Origin: Escherichia phage UoN_LG358_1
Reading direction: 5' to 3' (one strand)
Sequence record: OK570374
Length of the DNA stretch: 64,000 nt
Part shown: positions 14,904-38,384 of the stretch, piece by piece
Numbering within the stretch: the stretch's first letter is position 1
Layout of the letters: each line of letters opens with the position of its first letter
Notes under the pieces: generated by a model
What the model saw: the letters and a program-made list of their open reading frames with translations, nothing else
Told to the model about the DNA's origin: nothing
The model's database searches: none
Translations under genes and position numbers: made by a program

Positions 14904-15215
14904 TCATACGGCCATTTTTCCTTTAATTACTGGGTGGCTTTCATAGTTTTTAAGAATAAAGTCGTTTATCTTCATATGAGTACAAACCCAATATAACTGC
15001 ATTTCAGTATCCCAATCTTCAAAACTATCTGGAAAATTAATTTCCAGTTCGCATAACTCTTTTGGCTCTCTGCAAAGAATTTCTTTACACTGTTCTGTAT
15101 GGTTCAAATATATGTGGGTATTGCCGCCAGTAAATACTAGATGCCCTGGTTTTAACCCAGTCATTTTAGCTATGATATGAATTAAAGCTCCGTAAGACGC
15201 GATATTAAATGGTAG
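14904..15215 (-). CDS. td: thymidylate synthase, exon 2
   Basis: exon begins CUACCAUUUAAUAUCGCG (LPFNIASYG) immediately after the intron-terminal G; C-terminal TS sequence. Confidence 0.85.
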   Translation of the reverse strand, partial: LPFNIASYGALIHIIAKMTGLKPGHLVFTGGNTHIYLNHTEQCKEILCREPKELCELEINFPDSFEDWDTEMQLYWVCTHMKINDFILKNYESHPVIKGKMAV

Positions 15216-16227
15216 CATTGTGTTCAGCTGAGGACGTTAATCTCAGCCCGGAATTTATCCAGCTGCATGTCACCATGCAGAGCAGACTATATCTTCATCT
15301 CAATGAGATGTCTATCGTTTCGAGCCACTTGGCCCTACTCCCTAAAGGGATAGTCGTTCGGCATTTAGCAATAAAACCAGTTCCATTTATCAGATTTTAC
15401 ACGGTATGTAACTAAGCCTGAAGAAATCTCAAAATGTCTAGCAGCATCTGCGGCGCATTCAAAAATAATACCATCACATGAAATTTTCTTAATATTAGAT
15501 GGCTTTCTGCCCTTTGCCTTGTTAGACAATATTTCTCGTGTTTCTTTTGAATGTTCTTTACCGAAGAACGGATTACTTTGTCCTGAACGGTCTCTACAAT
15601 TTGAACAAGTTTTAAATGCTGGGCTTATTCTTTTCCCGCACTTGCAAAACTTATGTTTTTCTGGGTTCCACCGTCCATTTAATTCACCTGGTTTACCATA
15701 AATTACTTTACGTCCATCAATACCAAGTTTTTCCATCTTAGCTTTAACAGTAGCAGCTCGCTTTTTTATAATTTCTTTCTTTAATGGATAATTAGTAAAA
15801 ACATCTCCAAAAGAAGCATCTGCGATGTTATAACCATTTTGTTTTGAATTTAGTGTTTTAATCCAGAAATTTTCTCGTTCAATAATTATATCTTTTTCGT
15901 ATGGAACTTCTTCCAATACAGAACATTCAAATACATTACCATGTTTATTATAAGACCGTTGGAGTTTTATAGAATGATGTGCATTATTAGATAAATCGGA
16001 AAAATGACGTTTCCATCTTTTATCAAAATCCTTTGCACTTCCAACATAAATCTTATTGTTTAAAACATTTTTAATTTGATAAATTCCACTTTTCATAAAC
16101 ACCTCTAAATTATAGAAGTATTTATTAAAGGGCGGTCCTACACATTTAGCACGGGATTGTCTACGAGAGAGGTTCCCCGTTTAGATAGATTACAAGTATA
16201 AGTCACCTTATACCCAGGCCTAAATTA
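15216..16227 (-). mobile_element. group I self-splicing intron in td
   Basis: interrupts TS coding sequence; intron 5' end reads UAAUUUAGGCCUGGGUAUAAGGUGACUUAUACUUGUAAUCUAUCUAAACGGGGAACCUCUC, near-identical to the T4 td intron start as recalled; exon 1 ends ...CUUGGGU. Confidence 0.85.
15365..16102 (-). CDS. intron-encoded GIY-YIG homing endonuclease I-TevI
   Basis: 245 aa; N-terminal GIY-YIG (SGIYQIKN...KIYVGSA), C-terminal ...KISCDGIIFECAADAARHFEISSGLVTYRVKSDKWNWFY as in I-TevI. Confidence 0.9.
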   Translation of the reverse strand: MFMKSGIYQIKNVLNNKIYVGSAKDFDKRWKRHFSDLSNNAHHSIKLQRSYNKHGNVFECSVLEEVPYEKDIIIERENFWIKTLNSKQNGYNIADASFGDVFTNYPLKKEIIKKRAATVKAKMEKLGIDGRKVIYGKPGELNGRWNPEKHKFCKCGKRISPAFKTCSNCRDRSGQSNPFFGKEHSKETREILSNKAKGRKPSNIKKISCDGIIFECAADAARHFEISSGLVTYRVKSDKWNWFYC

Positions 16228-16776
16228 ACCCAAGAAAACATCGACACTGCGTTGATACCACTGGAGGTCCAGAAACCCATTTCTTACGTTAAATTGATAT
16301 ACCATATGGCATGGTGGAAGCGCCATCTTAGAGAGCTCTAGAGGGTTCCAAGCTGTCACAATCTGCCTTCGGTCTGCCGGCATTTCTTTTATTCTATCAA
16401 TGACTAACTTCAATTGGTCCACGCCCATGAAATCACGCCATTGTTTACCATAAACCGGTCCTAGTTCACCGTCAGTATAACCCATCGAAACAGCTTGATT
16501 TTCATAATTATCATCCCAGACGGTTTTCCCTTCTGTTCGAGAACCATGTTGAATTTCGCGGAGGTCATCTACATTTGTTGAGCCAGATAAGAACCACAGC
16601 AATTCAGCAATGCACGATTTCCACGCGAGTTTCTTTGTTGTTACTGCGGGAAATCCTTCTTGTAAATCAAACCGAAGCTGAGTGCCAAATACAGCAATTG
16701 TTCCCGTGCCCGTACGATCATCAGTCTCATAGCCTTCGTCAAAAATGTGTTGAATTAGTTCTTGATATTGTTTCAT
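16228..16776 (-). CDS. td: thymidylate synthase, exon 1
   Basis: MKQYQELIQHIFDEGYETDDRTGTGT...LPPCHMVYQFNV (TS active-site region); in-frame UAA at intron start. Confidence 0.9.
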
Positions 16777-17135: not shown

Positions 17136-17729
17136 TTAAATTTTTACATAAACATCTTCTGAAATATTAGTAAGTTCGTCAATATTATACCAATGAGTCT
17201 CAACAAGTTCCATATCTTCACTGATATTCCATATAAAATCTGCTGAGAGTTTAATATCAGAATTTACACGGTGTTTTTTGCGAATAGTTGTGCATATAAT
17301 TTTATCTGCGTAAATTCTTGAATGCTCAATAATATGTGCGCCACCAATAACAGAATAATTGGCATCATCGCGTTGAATAAAACAATTATACCCAAAATCA
17401 TGCCCAGAAACTTGAACTTTATTACCTTCTAAAAATTGTTGAAACTGTGTTTCATTAATATAGAGCTCGGCAGTTTGTCCTGATTTAGTTTTTGCATAAG
17501 GACGAGAAAAATCTTGCACTACAATATGAGAACGTCCATGAAGTTTTCCTCTTAAGCTCATAAATGTTTTTGCACCCATAATAAGAACAGTATCTTTAGT
17601 TCTGGAAGCAAAATTTTGCATGTCTTGCTTGATATGTCCCCATGGAAGACCAGTGTTTAACCCAAACGCAAATTCATTTTTATTGTCGACAGTTTTAGTA
17701 GGGCAATACGCAAAAATTAACTGAATCAT
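17136..17729 (-). CDS. frd: dihydrofolate reductase
   Basis: 197 aa; DHFR-like N-terminus (IQLIFAYCPTK...GLPWGHIKQDMQNFASRTK); synteny. Confidence 0.8.
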   Translation of the reverse strand: MIQLIFAYCPTKTVDNKNEFAFGLNTGLPWGHIKQDMQNFASRTKDTVLIMGAKTFMSLRGKLHGRSHIVVQDFSRPYAKTKSGQTAELYINETQFQQFLEGNKVQVSGHDFGYNCFIQRDDANYSVIGGAHIIEHSRIYADKIICTTIRKKHRVNSDIKLSADFIWNISEDMELVETHWYNIDELTNISEDVYVKI

Positions 17730-17820
17730 TATCCTTGCCTCATTTTACAATTAGGACAAATTCCACCTGCGAACAAAAGTCCGCTGCCGCAATATTTACA
17801 CTCCCAGTCGGTTAAAATTT

Positions 17821-18030
17821 TCATCTTAAGTTCCTAATACGTTCACGGATGATATTCAAAAACTGCCGTGTCATTTCGATGTTAGCTTCTCGCCATAAGA
17901 AGTTACTATTCATATCATTATATTCCGCGGTCACATTGTCGTTAAGCTCACATAATGCACACAATTTGCCGTGTTTTACTGCATCAGAAATTGCTTTATC
18001 AAACTCTTCTTTTGACATTGTAATTTGCAT
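17821..18030 (-). CDS. hypothetical protein (69 aa)
   Basis: ORF in operon orientation. Confidence 0.4.
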   Translation of the reverse strand: MQITMSKEEFDKAISDAVKHGKLCALCELNDNVTAEYNDMNSNFLWREANIEMTRQFLNIIRERIRNLR

Positions 18031-18356
18031 TATTTGTTTGAACCCTTTTTAGAGGCTAAAACCATGGTACGAAGCATTCTAAGGCCTTTATCAACAGCTT
18101 CAGCAATTTCGCCCGCCACGTTCTCATTGAATAGACCGAGAGTTCCTGATTTGATATCTTCCATTAAAATGTAGTTTATGTCATTTTCAGTTAAAGAAAT
18201 TTCTGGACCATTTCCACACGAAAAATTAATCTTACAAAATACATTCTGTCCACGTTGTTCTTGGTAGCGAATATTAATGTGTGTCACACCAGGAACATGG
18301 TCAAACTGACAACGAACATTAACTTCAGGAGCAGCAGAACACCAGATATCAGCCAT
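18030..18356 (-). CDS. hypothetical protein (108 aa)
   Basis: ORF in operon orientation. Confidence 0.45.
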   Translation of the reverse strand: MADIWCSAAPEVNVRCQFDHVPGVTHINIRYQEQRGQNVFCKINFSCGNGPEISLTENDINYILMEDIKSGTLGLFNENVAGEIAEAVDKGLRMLRTMVLASKKGSNK

Positions 18357-18631
18357 TATAATTCTTCCTTAGCTTCTTTAAATGATTTTTTGAAATCTTC
18401 AACATATTCGATAGGAATCCAGAACCCAGAACCATAACCGTCTTCATAGCATGGGCACATATCGCAAAACTGTTGCCAATGAACAGTTTTACCTTCTACG
18501 GTGAAGGGAGCTTCCATTTCGCACAAAGACTCTTCAATAAGTTCAATCATCGCTGGATTTTTATCATAGATGCAGAAATTCCAAACACCTTTAACTGTGG
18601 AATCTTTAATGCTTTCACGCTGTAATTTCAT
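18356..18631 (-). CDS. hypothetical acidic Cys-rich early protein (91 aa)
   Basis: ORF with conserved promoter/leader cassette upstream. Confidence 0.5.
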   Translation of the reverse strand: MKLQRESIKDSTVKGVWNFCIYDKNPAMIELIEESLCEMEAPFTVEGKTVHWQQFCDMCPCYEDGYGSGFWIPIEYVEDFKKSFKEAKEEL

Positions 18632-18661
18632 TTTATTATCCTCATTTGTTTTGATAGGGTT

Positions 18662-18691
18662 ATAGTATCATAACCATAACCCGTTGTAAAC
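18662..18691 (-). promoter_or_regulatory. T4-type early promoter (GTTTAC-N18-TACTAT)
   Basis: - strand GTTTAC 18691..18686, TACTAT 18667..18662. Confidence 0.6.
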
Positions 18692-18693
18692 GG

Positions 18694-19074
18694 TCATTTG
18701 AAAATTTTTTGTAAAAGTTCAATGATTTCGTCTACGTTTTGTTTTGTAACAACACAATGAATTTTAGTTACACCGTCAGTATCTTTACATTCGTCGTCAA
18801 GAACTGGTTCTTCATATTCGCGAAAGCAATAGAACTCATTATCGTAAAGTTCAAAATAACAATCACCTAGACCATCGTCGCAAAAGCACTCACCATTAGC
18901 GCAGACAATTTCAGTTACAAAATATTGGTTGTCAAATAATTCTATAGATTTTACTTCAAACCAACCGCCATTTTCGTGGATAATATCTACCATCTCAGTA
19001 TTATTCAAAGGGCTTAAGCCAATAAAATCATTAATAAGCTCTGGGACTAGTTCGTATTTTTTGCCTATTTTCAT
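18694..19074 (-). CDS. hypothetical acidic Cys-rich protein (126 aa)
   Basis: ORF; CANGECFCDDGLGDCYFELYDNEFYCF. Confidence 0.45.
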   Translation of the reverse strand: MKIGKKYELVPELINDFIGLSPLNNTEMVDIIHENGGWFEVKSIELFDNQYFVTEIVCANGECFCDDGLGDCYFELYDNEFYCFREYEEPVLDDECKDTDGVTKIHCVVTKQNVDEIIELLQKIFK

Positions 19075-19088
19075 TTTGATTTCCTCAA

Positions 19089-19316
19089 TTATTCTTTAAT
19101 CAAACCCATGTAAAACATTTTATCTTCAGGTTCCATGCCATCGCAGTACTCAATTTCCATAAAACGATTAATAGCTTTTAAAGGACCATTAATGACAACG
19201 TTCATGTTCCATGATTTGGAATTCTGTGAATTAGCGATACGAAGTTCTGGGTATCGATTACGAATAACTTCTTCAATGTATTCAAAATCTACAACATCAA
19301 TATCAACACTAGCCAT
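19089..19316 (-). CDS. hypothetical acidic early protein (75 aa)
   Basis: ORF with promoter/leader cassette upstream. Confidence 0.45.
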
Positions 19317-19346
19317 TTTATTTTCCTCGTTTGTTTTGATAGGGTT

Positions 19347-19376
19347 ATAGTATCATAACCATAACCCATTGTAAAC
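19347..19376 (-). promoter_or_regulatory. T4-type early promoter (GTTTAC-N18-TACTAT)
   Basis: - strand GTTTAC 19376..19371, TACTAT 19352..19347. Confidence 0.6.
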
Positions 19377-19378
19377 AA

Positions 19379-19636
19379 TTAATTGATATCACTCATATAC
19401 ATTTCGATATCTTCATATTCGCAAATTTCCAAATACTCACGGATATCTTCAACTTCACCAATGATTTCAACTAAAGGCCATCCGCCAGCGGGTCCACGTT
19501 CTGCTATAACGTTAAACTCCAATTTACCAGGAAGAATTTCCATGAACCGAGTGCAATCATCAAATTCTAAATCAATAATCATTCCGCCTTCGTCTTTGAT
19601 AATTTCACATACTAAGTCAAGTTCTAAACGTGCCAT
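19379..19636 (-). CDS. hypothetical acidic early protein, paralogue A
   Basis: MARLELDLVCEI...GGWPLVEI; start set at the second ATG because the first ATG lies inside the conserved leader (AUGAAGGA = SD). Confidence 0.5.
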   Translation of the reverse strand: MARLELDLVCEIIKDEGGMIIDLEFDDCTRFMEILPGKLEFNVIAERGPAGGWPLVEIIGEVEDIREYLEICEYEDIEMYMSDIN

Positions 19637-19667
19637 GATATTTTCCTTCATTTGTTTTGATAAGGTA

Positions 19668-19697
19668 ATAGTAACACAGTTTAAAGCGGATGTAAAC
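19668..19697 (-). promoter_or_regulatory. T4-type early promoter (GTTTAC-N18-TACTAT)
   Basis: - strand GTTTAC 19697..19692, TACTAT 19673..19668. Confidence 0.6.
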
Positions 19698-19840
19698 AGT
19701 TAATTGCAAATTTCTGCATCAACTTTACTCTTTCACAACTTAATTCATTGCCTAGAAAAATCATATACAATAGTCATTTGAACTCAATAACATCGTATGA
19801 GGTTATACCATAACTATAACCTCATAATGTAGTATACGTA

Positions 19841-20101
19841 TTATTGTTCCATAAATTCATCTAGCAACCAATCAATGTCTTCCCATTGATTATCTTCAAG
19901 CCATTTGCGGATATTTTTTTCAGACCCGCGAAGATAAATCACTGGCCAGCCGCCGCCGGTGCCTTCTTCGATTATAAGGTCAAAATCAAGACCATGGTCA
20001 ACATCATAAAAACGGCTTCCATCCTCAAAAATTAAATCAGTTGCAATTCCACGCTCATTGCGGTGAACTTCAGCTACAATATCAAGTTCTAAACGTGCCA
20101 T
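19841..20101 (-). CDS. hypothetical acidic early protein, paralogue B
   Basis: MARLELDIVAEV...GGWPVIYL; tandem paralogue of 19379-19636. Confidence 0.5.
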   Translation of the reverse strand: MARLELDIVAEVHRNERGIATDLIFEDGSRFYDVDHGLDFDLIIEEGTGGGWPVIYLRGSEKNIRKWLEDNQWEDIDWLLDEFMEQ

Positions 20102-20132
20102 TTTCAATTTCCTCATTTGTTTTGATGAGATA

Positions 20133-20162
20133 ATAGTAACACAGTTTTTGGAGGATGTAAAC
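20133..20162 (-). promoter_or_regulatory. T4-type early promoter (GTTTAC-N18-TACTAT)
   Basis: - strand GTTTAC 20162..20157, TACTAT 20138..20133. Confidence 0.6.
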
Positions 20163-20170
20163 GGTTAGCT

Positions 20171-20204
20171 CCAGAAACAACAAAGGAGCCCGTAGGCTCC
20201 TTTT
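20171..20204 (-). terminator. terminator hairpin downstream of gene 32 (GGAGCC-CGUA-GGCUCC)
   Basis: 6-bp GC stem flanked by U/A-rich tracts on both strands. Confidence 0.5.
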
Positions 20205-20208
20205 ATTA

Positions 20209-21114
20209 TTAAAGACCGTTCAAAATGTCGTCCAGGTCATCATCGTCAGATGAACTAACATCTGAAGTAGAATTGTTAGTTGTAGAACCAGATGAGAAAG
20301 CTTCCATATCTTTATCAAAAGCGTCCAGGTCATCAGCTACTTTATCAGCCTGTCGTTCAGCTTTTGCTGCGGCACCGCCCATAGCAGCAGTTCCCATAAC
20401 TTTCTCAAATTTCTTTTGGTTGTCGTCAAAAGATTTAAATTTATCTTTAGAGGTCATTTCAGTTAAATCAACCATCTGGTCATTGAGAGATTTCTGAACA
20501 GATTCATCGTCAATATTTGGGATTTCAGATTGGCCCAAGAATTTCGATTCGTCGTAGTTACTAAAGCCTGATACTTTCTTAACTTTCAGTACAAAGTTTG
20601 CGCCTTCATAAGGACAAGTTACATCAACTGGAGTTTCACCCATATCAGTATCAACTGCAATCATTGCGTTGATTTTGTCCCAAATTTTCTTACCAAAACG
20701 ATATTTGAAAACTTTACCTTCATTTTCTGGAGCAGCCGGGTCTTTAATAACCAGGATATTCGCCCAGTAAGAAGTTTTGCGTTTCAGTAGTTTATATTCT
20801 TCTTGGTTTGTGTTATAGCTGTCGTTTTTAGACAGATGCTGGCATACCGGGCAAGAATCGTAATCACCGTGTGTAGATGTGCAATTTTCAATATACCACT
20901 GATTATTTTTCTTAAAGCCATGATTAATCAAAATTGCAAACGGAGCAGCTTCTTCATTTTTGGAAGGCAGAAAACGAATCACCGCTTGGCCATTACCTGC
21001 ATTATCGAGCTTAAGTTTCCATTCACCTTTATCTGAATCTTGGAAACCACCTTTGTTACCAGACAGAGCGGCCAGTTGAGCTTGAAGTTGAGCGGGATTT
21101 TTGCGTTTAAACAT
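20209..21114 (-). CDS. 32: single-stranded DNA-binding protein gp32
   Basis: 301 aa; zinc site (H...C...CPVCQH), acidic C-terminal tail ([11 protein letters not shown]); synteny. Confidence 0.95.
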
Positions 21115-35397: not shown

Positions 35398-35427
35398 ATA
35401 GTATCAAATCTTAAAGCAGAAGTAAAC
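35398..35427 (-). promoter_or_regulatory. T4-type early promoter (GTTTAC-N18-TACTAT)
   Basis: - strand GTTTAC 35427..35422, TACTAT 35403..35398. Confidence 0.6.
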
Positions 35428-38354: not shown

Positions 38355-38384
38355 ATAGTAACACATCCTTCCATGGATGTAAAC
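38355..38384 (-). promoter_or_regulatory. T4-type early promoter with palindromic spacer (GTTTAC-N18-TACTAT)
   Basis: - strand GTTTAC 38384..38379, TACTAT 38360..38355; spacer contains CATCC-AUGGAA-GGAUG inverted repeat. Confidence 0.6.

Follow-up and report, generated by a model that had tools for sequence, protein, structure and literature searches.

Small early-type genes and PeSL-like promoter cassettes between gene 32 and frd in a Gelderlandvirus locus

The question

What are the small genes that crowd the space between gene 32 and frd in a T4-like phage, how are they expressed, and what might they do? The question is raised by a 64,000-nucleotide stretch of Escherichia phage UoN_LG358_1 (sequence record OK570374; 'the window' below means this whole stretch), in which the genes for the single-strand DNA-binding protein (gene 32) and for dihydrofolate reductase (frd) are separated by eight small open reading frames (ORFs), every one of them on the minus strand. 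An earlier note on this DNA, made from its letters and a list of its ORFs, had counted seven and had seen in them the profile of host-takeover or anti-defence factors. The interval is a frd-32 hyperplastic region of the textbook T4-like type, and its sequence and annotation were already available in the Salmonella phages STP4-a and S16. The fuller account argued here, which can be held with good though not complete confidence, is that this region comprises four early transcription units, each headed by a promoter cassette, and that such cassettes would serve two ends, the expression of small accessory genes and their shuffling.

The 4.1 kb around the interval are 99.1% identical to STP4-a and 97.3% identical to S16, and by this measure the locus is that of a T4-like phage of the genus Gelderlandvirus. 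The genes in question, in their order of transcription and with their lengths in amino acids (aa), are listed below together with the two border genes; dN/dS is the ratio of nonsynonymous to synonymous substitution rates.

19841-20101, minus strand: ORF A, 86 aa from MARLELD (longest ORF 19841-20116, 91 aa); phrog_5922; dN/dS 0.08-0.32
19379-19636, minus strand: ORF B, 85 aa from MARLELD (longest ORF 19379-19651, 90 aa); phrog_5922; dN/dS 0.04-0.22
19089-19316, minus strand: ORF C, Frd.3 orthologue, 75 aa; Pfam PF05798, 132.8 bits (cut-off 28.1); 65% identity to T4 Frd.3
18694-19074, minus strand: ORF D, Frd.2 orthologue, 126 aa with 7 Cys; Pfam PF03197, 114.9 bits (cut-off 29); 64% identity to T4 Frd.2
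18356-18631, minus strand: ORF E, Frd.1 orthologue, 91 aa; Pfam PF17438 (DUF5417), 136.5 bits (cut-off 23.9); 42% identity to T4 Frd.1 (tblastn)
18030-18356, minus strand: ORF F, 108 aa; DUF7247, Pfam PF23905, 142.9 bits (cut-off 27); its start overlaps the stop of E (TAATG)
17821-18030, minus strand: ORF G, 69 aa; phrog_8520; its start overlaps the stop of F
17729-17824, minus strand: ORF H, 31 aa, zinc-ribbon-like CxxC-x14-CxxC; phrog_17317 (E 1.9e-24); overlaps G (ATGA) and frd (TAATG)
20209-21114, minus strand: gene 32, the upstream border; 98.7% identity to STP4-a gp32 and 81% to T4 gp32
17136-17729, minus strand: frd, the downstream border and last gene of the coupled frd.1-F-G-H-frd run

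Eight selected genes, three of them known from T4

The seven ORFs of the earlier note (69, 108, 91, 126, 75, 90 and 91 aa, reading from frd towards gene 32 and taking the longest frames) are real, and the peptides it quoted are found exactly; the count was incomplete in that the 31-aa ORF H had been overlooked. The note was also right that there are more genes here than in T4, where the interval holds only frd.1, frd.2 and frd.3. E, D and C match these T4 genes (families DUF5417, FRD2 and Phage_FRD3) in order and orientation as well as in position between the two border genes; unlike T4, the phage here adds A and B, which probably belong to the superfamily of Frd.3 (see below), on the upstream side and F, G and H downstream. 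The annotators of S16 had already labelled gp160 as Frd.3, gp159/159.1 as Frd.2 and gp158 as Frd.1. Gene content may thus be described as an ancestral T4 set (Frd.3, Frd.2, Frd.1) to which lineage-variable members (A, B, F, G, H) would have been added.

For A and B the true starts are most likely the ATGs of MARLELD, at 20101 and 19636, because the ATG further upstream is contained in the conserved Shine-Dalgarno block, AAATGAGGA, and because MARLELD is where the homologues start.

Pairwise dN/dS values against relatives run from 0.04 to 0.40 across all eight ORFs, which indicates purifying selection and therefore that all eight are genuine, selected genes. This includes the short ORF H, which is present in 8/8 relatives examined and has a dN/dS of 0.15. 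The records of S16, Melville, CF-SP2, SEA1 and the Moonvirus NM4.3 include it as an annotated gene; that of STP4-a leaves it unannotated. ORF F has homologues in 414 phage records and ORF G in 39, whilst the Frd.2 family extends to 890.

The description of the proteins as mostly very acidic is borne out. The isoelectric points (pI) are 4.42 (A), 4.05 (B, the lowest of the set), 4.52 (C), 4.16 (D), 4.55 (E), 5.62 (F), 5.75 (G) and 8.47 (H), so that five of the seven larger proteins fall between 4.05 and 4.55. The background consists of the 32 other coding sequences with no more than 130 aa that are annotated in 40 kb of this genome, and against it a pI below 4.6 is enriched (5/7 versus 4/32; Fisher p = 0.004). 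The net charges of A (-11), B (-17) and D (-18), with pI values of 4.05-4.42, are of the high negative kind that DNA-mimic proteins have. The proteins are also Cys-rich, as the earlier note had it (3.4 Cys per 100 aa versus 1.2 in the same background). Most of these Cys residues are not conserved, an invariant CxxC being confined to Frd.1 and no Cys being invariant across the Frd.2 homologues, and a zinc-binding reading of the Cys-rich stretches was dropped on this account.

Four predicted transcription units

Exact matches to GTTTAC-N18-TAYTAT occur 13 times in the window where 0.18 are expected, and 13/13 are on the minus, coding, strand. Four of the form GTTTAC-N18-TACTAT lie in the interval, at 20133-20162, 19668-19697, 19347-19376 and 18662-18691, where they precede A, B, C (frd.3) and E (frd.1) respectively; all four have a TG-extended -10 element. 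No fifth promoter of this type is found in the interval, even when two mismatches are allowed. The general picture of small, mostly acidic proteins behind early sigma-70-type promoters is therefore a fair one, but the statements that each ORF has its own promoter, or that five of them do, are not: there are four promoters for eight ORFs.

The genes without a promoter of their own are closely packed behind those that have one. Only 14 nt separate frd.3 from frd.2 (ORF D). Stop and start codons overlap as TAATG at E/F, F/G and H/frd and as ATGA at G/H, which suggests that frd.1, F, G, H and frd are translationally coupled. On this arrangement the predicted organization is of four units: A, B, frd.3-frd.2 and frd.1-F-G-H-frd. 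Each cassette would give its gene module immediate-early expression by the host RNA polymerase, to judge from the promoter consensus and from T4.

Two hairpins accompany the upstream units.

20182-20203, minus strand: terminator-like hairpin after gene 32, with a 9-bp stem containing 5 GC pairs followed by a T-rich tail; an annotated terminator in AKM_NP4
19796-19826, minus strand: hairpin downstream of A, 12 bp, with no T-run

The first sits 19 nt upstream of the -35 element of promoter A, forming what looks like a composite terminator/promoter between gene 32 and the first small gene. The second, whose stem sequence resembles that of the cassettes described next, may be what is left of a lost or decayed promoter cassette, possibly its stem. 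In the relative CGG4-1 (about 1970-2000 of the stretch compared) this hairpin carries two compensatory pair changes (T-A to C-G and A-T to G-C), and its 7-nt loop is the exact reverse complement of that in the window (GTTATGG versus CCATAAC), as if the palindrome had been flipped.

The promoters are repeated cassettes

The four promoters belong to a single family of 73-nt direct repeats (D1), which span from just upstream of the -35 element to the start codon.

20100-20172, minus strand: cassette A, with -35 GTTTAC at 20157-20162, -10 TACTAT at 20133-20138 and a conserved 5' untranslated region (5'UTR) with a Shine-Dalgarno sequence
19635-19707, minus strand: cassette B, with its promoter at 19668-19697
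19314-19386, minus strand: cassette before frd.3, with its promoter at 19347-19376 and a 10-bp stem, GGGTTATGGT/ACTATAACCC, over the -10 element
18629-18701, minus strand: cassette before frd.1, with its promoter at 18662-18691 and the same stem-loop; direct-repeat partner of 19314-19386

These cassettes fit the published description of the promoter-early stem loop (PeSL) of T4-type phages, those of A and B only partially. In PeSLs, as Arbiol et al. (2010, PMC2839356) describe them, an early promoter is combined with a stem-loop, most commonly between -35 and -10 or over the -10 element. At their 3' end stand the Shine-Dalgarno sequence and the start codon; conservation extends over about 100 bp, and the elements occur in clusters within hyperplastic regions, surrounded by ORFs of unknown function (PMC2839356; Comeau et al. 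2014, PMC4122927). The hexamers of the four exact sites have the spacing of the sigma-70-like early promoters of PeSLs (17-18 nt), and the cassettes end in AAATGAGGA-N7/8-ATG, which places a Shine-Dalgarno sequence and a start codon at their 3' ends. The frd.3 and frd.1 cassettes are 90% identical and share the stem over -10, with a predicted energy of -14.3 kcal/mol; other cassettes of the window have a second type of stem, CATCC...GGATG, placed between -35 and -10. Conservation over some 70-100 nt, the two stem positions in those cassettes that have a stem, and the many copies among small ORFs between core genes are shared with PeSLs, as is the behaviour of the repeats among close relatives, where insertions and deletions break inside them and a chimeric cassette remains.

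There are also differences. The stems of described PeSLs are polyG/polyC, whereas those here are AT-rich (GGGTTATGGT), and two of the four cassettes have no internal stem. The PeSL papers deal with RB49/phi1, T4/PST and KVP40/nt-1 (PMC2839356; PMC4122927), and a literature search for PeSLs together with Gelderlandvirus, S16 or STP4-a found no paper.

The 5'UTR of cassette A, TATCTCATCAAAACAAATGAGGA, is a 23-nt leader that follows the -10 element and is identical in the window cassettes at 38355 and 63901, that is, in three cassettes (20133, 38355 and 63901) up to 44 kb apart. Such a leader is long enough that it could serve as a dispersed recombination target throughout the genome.

Gene gain and loss among relatives

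Being direct repeats, the cassettes also lend themselves to homologous recombination, by which the modules lying between two of them can be deleted, inserted or duplicated, a step for which comparison with relatives provides the evidence. Six different gene sets are seen among eight Gelderlandvirus genomes at the interval:

Window and STP4-a: A, B, frd.3, frd.2, frd.1, F, G and H all present
S16: A, B, frd.3, frd.2, frd.1, F, G and H all present; also a second Frd.2 paralogue, and gp156.1
Melville: A, B, frd.3, frd.2, frd.1, G and H present; F absent; gp156.1
AKM_NP4: A, B, frd.1, F, G and H present; frd.3 and frd.2 absent; gp156.1
CGG4-1: A, B, frd.1, F, G and H present; frd.3 and frd.2 absent; an extra ORF before A
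CF-SP2: A, B, frd.1, G and H present; frd.3, frd.2 and F absent
SEA1: B, frd.1, G and H present; A, frd.3, frd.2 and F absent

One case is the frd.3-frd.2 unit, which in the window is flanked by the two cassettes that are 90% identical. In the four relatives that lack both genes (AKM_NP4, CF-SP2, CGG4-1 and SEA1), a lone PeSL separates B from frd.1. It is chimeric in AKM_NP4 and CF-SP2, its left flank being that of the copy between B and frd.3 and its right flank that of the copy between frd.2 and frd.1, and these mixed flanks point to a crossover inside the shared core of about 50 bp. In CGG4-1 and SEA1 the left flanks diverge from the B/frd.3 copy. Since T4 and a Moonvirus have both genes at this position, their absence is most simply a deletion. 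A module may also be gained in this way: on either side of the extra ORF of CGG4-1 stands a copy of the gene-32-proximal cassette. With a gene content this variable among relatives, the small genes behave, as judged by these alignments, like accessory genes; the proteins are real, selected accessory early proteins that are dispensable in some relatives.

Several points weigh against the account as a whole. For the A and B promoters the predicted folding energies are no stronger than -0.4 and -1.5 kcal/mol, so that an internal stem-loop is found in 2/4 cassettes, and those of A and B are PeSL-like solely through the neighbouring hairpins at 20182-20203 and 19796-19826. Some insertions and deletions are not bounded by PeSLs at all, namely the loss of F in Melville, CF-SP2 and SEA1 and the insertion of gp156.1 in S16. 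Finally, promoter activity, early timing and terminator function are read from the consensus and from T4, RB49 and phi1, and should be taken as predictions.

Three further observations concern exchange at this locus. The B-type paralogue of CGG4-1 (2184-2447 of the stretch compared) ends with an A-type C-terminus (DIDWMLDEFMEQ), which suggests recombination between the two paralogues. In SEA1, where ORF A is absent, the promoter after gene 32 (1330-1415 of the stretch compared) leads into a different 5'UTR (TACTTCATACCAAATAAATGGTAAACAAA...), one matching the window cassette at 35398-35427; promoter and leader modules thus appear, at least from this alignment, to be swapped independently. Lastly, frd and all eight small ORFs are 100% identical between the window and STP4-a but gp32 is only 98.7% identical; divergence from STP4-a is concentrated in the core gene 32 and not in the 'variable' interval 17136-20116.

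A and B are probably relatives of Frd.3

A and B are 40-42% identical to each other, so the earlier note was correct to call them a tandem paralogue pair (MARLELD...GGWP). Neither has a Pfam family or matches the Frd.3 model PF05798. By tblastn the A/B family is found in 206 phage records, mainly from phages of Klebsiella, Enterobacter, Salmonella, Citrobacter and Serratia; no Escherichia phage is among the organisms listed for it, and the T4 interval gives no match. Among the listed records, two copies are seen only in Gelderlandviruses. A broader profile gathered 66 clusters (at 50% identity) with a GPGGGWP signature from among 1.84 billion representatives. The pattern of the family is strand - GPGGGWP - strand - G - helix - acidic helix, and its members are either stand-alone proteins of 65-110 aa or one domain within proteins of 170-770 aa, in which no Pfam or PHROG domain is found besides the family itself.

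Comparison of this broad A/B profile with a 19-sequence Frd.3 profile (hhalign) gave a match over the full length with 92.7% probability and an E value of 4.4e-7, whilst the control comparisons of A/B with Frd.1 and Frd.2 gave 0.06% and 0.7%. The AlphaFold model of A (predicted local distance difference test score, pLDDT, of 82) has five strands followed by two C-terminal helices. It was built on a shallow alignment, as few relatives of A (5, then 11) came up in the word-indexed protein search. Foldseek found no match for it in the PDB (best E 0.6); against a set of viral models it matched only uncharacterised phage proteins, among which models of Frd.3 rank 16 and 18, at a template modelling (TM) score of about 0.5. 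The model of Frd.3 itself (pLDDT 93) has the topology beta-alpha-beta-beta-alpha-alpha. Its best matches in the PDB are the microcompartment shell proteins PduA and CcmK (E 0.015, TM 0.55, 9-14% identity), which are read as reflecting a generic beta-alpha-beta-beta-alpha sandwich and not homology.

These comparisons make A, B and Frd.3 probably three tandem members of one superfamily. If A and B are indeed diverged members of the superfamily of Frd.3, the 'expansion' on the gene 32 side consists of further members of that superfamily. Three considerations tell against the relationship: the shallow A/B alignment by itself gives only 31% probability against Frd.3, the link comes down to one profile-profile comparison and a weak fold signal, and the predicted middle parts differ, being a helix in Frd.3 and a beta-hairpin in A.

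It could be speculated further that A, B and Frd.3 form a widespread, uncurated superfamily of immediate-early proteins (small alpha/beta domains in which a conserved loop with a Trp, mostly GPGGGWP, lies between two strands) that was triplicated next to gene 32 in Gelderlandviruses by arms-race diversification of an inhibitor of host defences or host enzymes, with frd.3-frd.2 as a mobile counter-defence cassette. This is an unlikely extension of the superfamily relationship. If true, however, the presence or absence of the PeSL-flanked frd.3-frd.2 unit would shape host range among S16-like Salmonella phages.

A stretch of Frd.2 (residues 29-42, IIHENGGWFEV) also resembles the A/B signature VIxExGPGGGWPxV. 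This may be chance, the profile comparison giving only 0.7%. In the C-terminal segment of Frd.2, residues 93-123 (DTDGVTKIHCVVTKQNVDEIIELLQKIFK) resemble single designed ankyrin repeats, a marginal match (E about 1e-3) in which no stretch passes alone.

What the proteins may do

At the protein level function is a matter of conjecture throughout, and this too counts against the account. A tentative best guess, which may well prove wrong, is that the proteins are small protein-binding modulators of host or defence proteins, and not enzymes or DNA mimics. Homology searches, from which a non-defence function might have emerged to overturn the earlier note, provided names and no such function. Matches of the eight proteins to PADLOC and NCBIfam are limited to one PADLOC methyltransferase match at chance level (E 0.005), and a sequence search of the PDB with six ORFs (A, C, D, E, F and G) returned nothing significant.

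Of the alternatives, that proposed by the earlier note fares best. On this view the small acidic proteins serve in anti-defence or in host takeover, and some of them would mimic DNA and so titrate defence proteins that bind it, restriction enzymes among them. The acidity of five of the seven, set beside the few other small proteins below pI 4.6, the early promoters that precede the genes and their variable presence among close relatives, which is expected of arms-race genes, are all in its favour. So is the recent demonstration that other small T4 proteins of unknown function have a counter-defence role, Y16O/Sequestin being an example (bioRxiv 10.1101/2025.07.12.664507). The mimics T7 Ocr, ArdA and T4 Arn are likewise small, strongly negative and expressed early, as A, B and D would be if their promoters act as predicted. 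However, the six ORFs searched have no sequence similarity to these mimics or to any other solved structure. The two models made, of A and Frd.3, give no Foldseek match in the PDB at E <= 0.001, whether to Ocr-, ArdA- or Arn-type mimics or to any other DNA mimic or anti-defence protein (best E 0.6 and 0.015), and are compact alpha/beta domains of 75-86 residues rather than elongated, helical, DNA-like rods. Three of the seven ORFs are the conserved T4 genes frd.1-3 and not novel additions, and these are kept in hundreds of phages of many host genera. No mention of the frd.x genes is made in the main text of a T4 conditional-essentiality screen that used hosts carrying defence systems, of the paper describing the EVADES catalogue or of a survey of the viral proteins by which immune signalling is manipulated. 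Moreover, in a knock-down screen of T4 with dCas13d (CRISPRi-ART), frd.2 was the only 'Fit' gene of unknown function, its knock-down lowering fitness (PMC11879866), a result that fits a general role in infection at least as well as a strain-specific counter-defence. The anti-defence reading is a reasonable prior, though a rather improbable one, and no observation here connects these proteins with defence or with the mimicry of DNA.

The same screening result can be taken to favour a role at the RNA level, in which Frd.2, and perhaps its neighbours, would bind or chaperone RNA and tune the stability or translation of early phage or host mRNAs, like GoF. The N-terminal half of T4 Frd.2 is predicted to fold as an LSm-like/SH3-like barrel, which places it with GoF and MotB.1, and the GoF(D25Y) variant stabilises gene 41 mRNA (Kim et al. 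2025, PMC12152347). The homology of ORF D to Frd.2 covers its whole length, S16 having two paralogues, and a predicted barrel fold can be taken over from the 64%-identical T4 protein. RNA binding by the wild-type members of the family is only conjectural, though: in the reporter assay the wild-type forms of GoF and MotB.1 were without effect, and a T4 frd.2 amber mutant plated normally (PMC12152347). The charge of ORF D (-18, with a pI of 4.16) is unfavourable for direct binding to RNA, four close relatives do without frd.2 at this locus, and the other seven ORFs are left unexplained. This explanation seems a little less probable again than the anti-defence one. In a separate connection with RNA, the frd.3 mRNA has been found among the abundant NAD-capped transcripts of T4 (bioRxiv 10.1101/2024.04.04.588121).

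It is less probable still, though conceivable, that the proteins are accessory subunits or modulators of the phage machinery for nucleotide synthesis and replication. E, F, G, H and frd form a single coupled run, the interval lies among gene 32, frd, td and nrdA/B, and H is kept in every relative examined. Yet coupling of this kind is common in T4-like early operons and is non-specific, Melville, CF-SP2 and SEA1 lack F, T4 has the same enzymes without F, G or H in its interval, and no homology to any enzyme subunit is seen.

The ORFs might instead be passengers, largely without function, that selfish and mobile promoter cassettes carry along. This is very improbable, for although modules are gained and lost between near-identical genomes, and PeSL-flanked ORFs form excised mini-circles in RB49 and phi1 (PMC2839356), the selection data (dN/dS of 0.04-0.40 in all eight, including comparisons with near-saturated synonymous sites) disfavour it, and the families persist in 39 to 890 phage records.

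Neighbouring features

Downstream of frd, thymidylate synthase is annotated in two pieces within 14904-16776 (minus strand), with a homing endonuclease ORF between them at 15365-16096, an arrangement comparable to the T4 td intron with I-TevI. A scan with Rfam at gathering thresholds detected no group I intron in the td region, and no RNA family in the window as a whole.

Significance

With this locus, PeSL-type mobile promoter cassettes, and a chimeric junction that points to recombination between them, are extended to a further genus, one that includes therapeutic and biocontrol Salmonella phages. The relatives without frd.2 at this locus look like natural deletion mutants that could be used for phenotype comparison, provided that they have no copy elsewhere in the genome. 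If the orphan pair next to gene 32 and Frd.3 do make up one larger uncharacterised domain family, then a single structure or interaction screen could inform many phage proteins.

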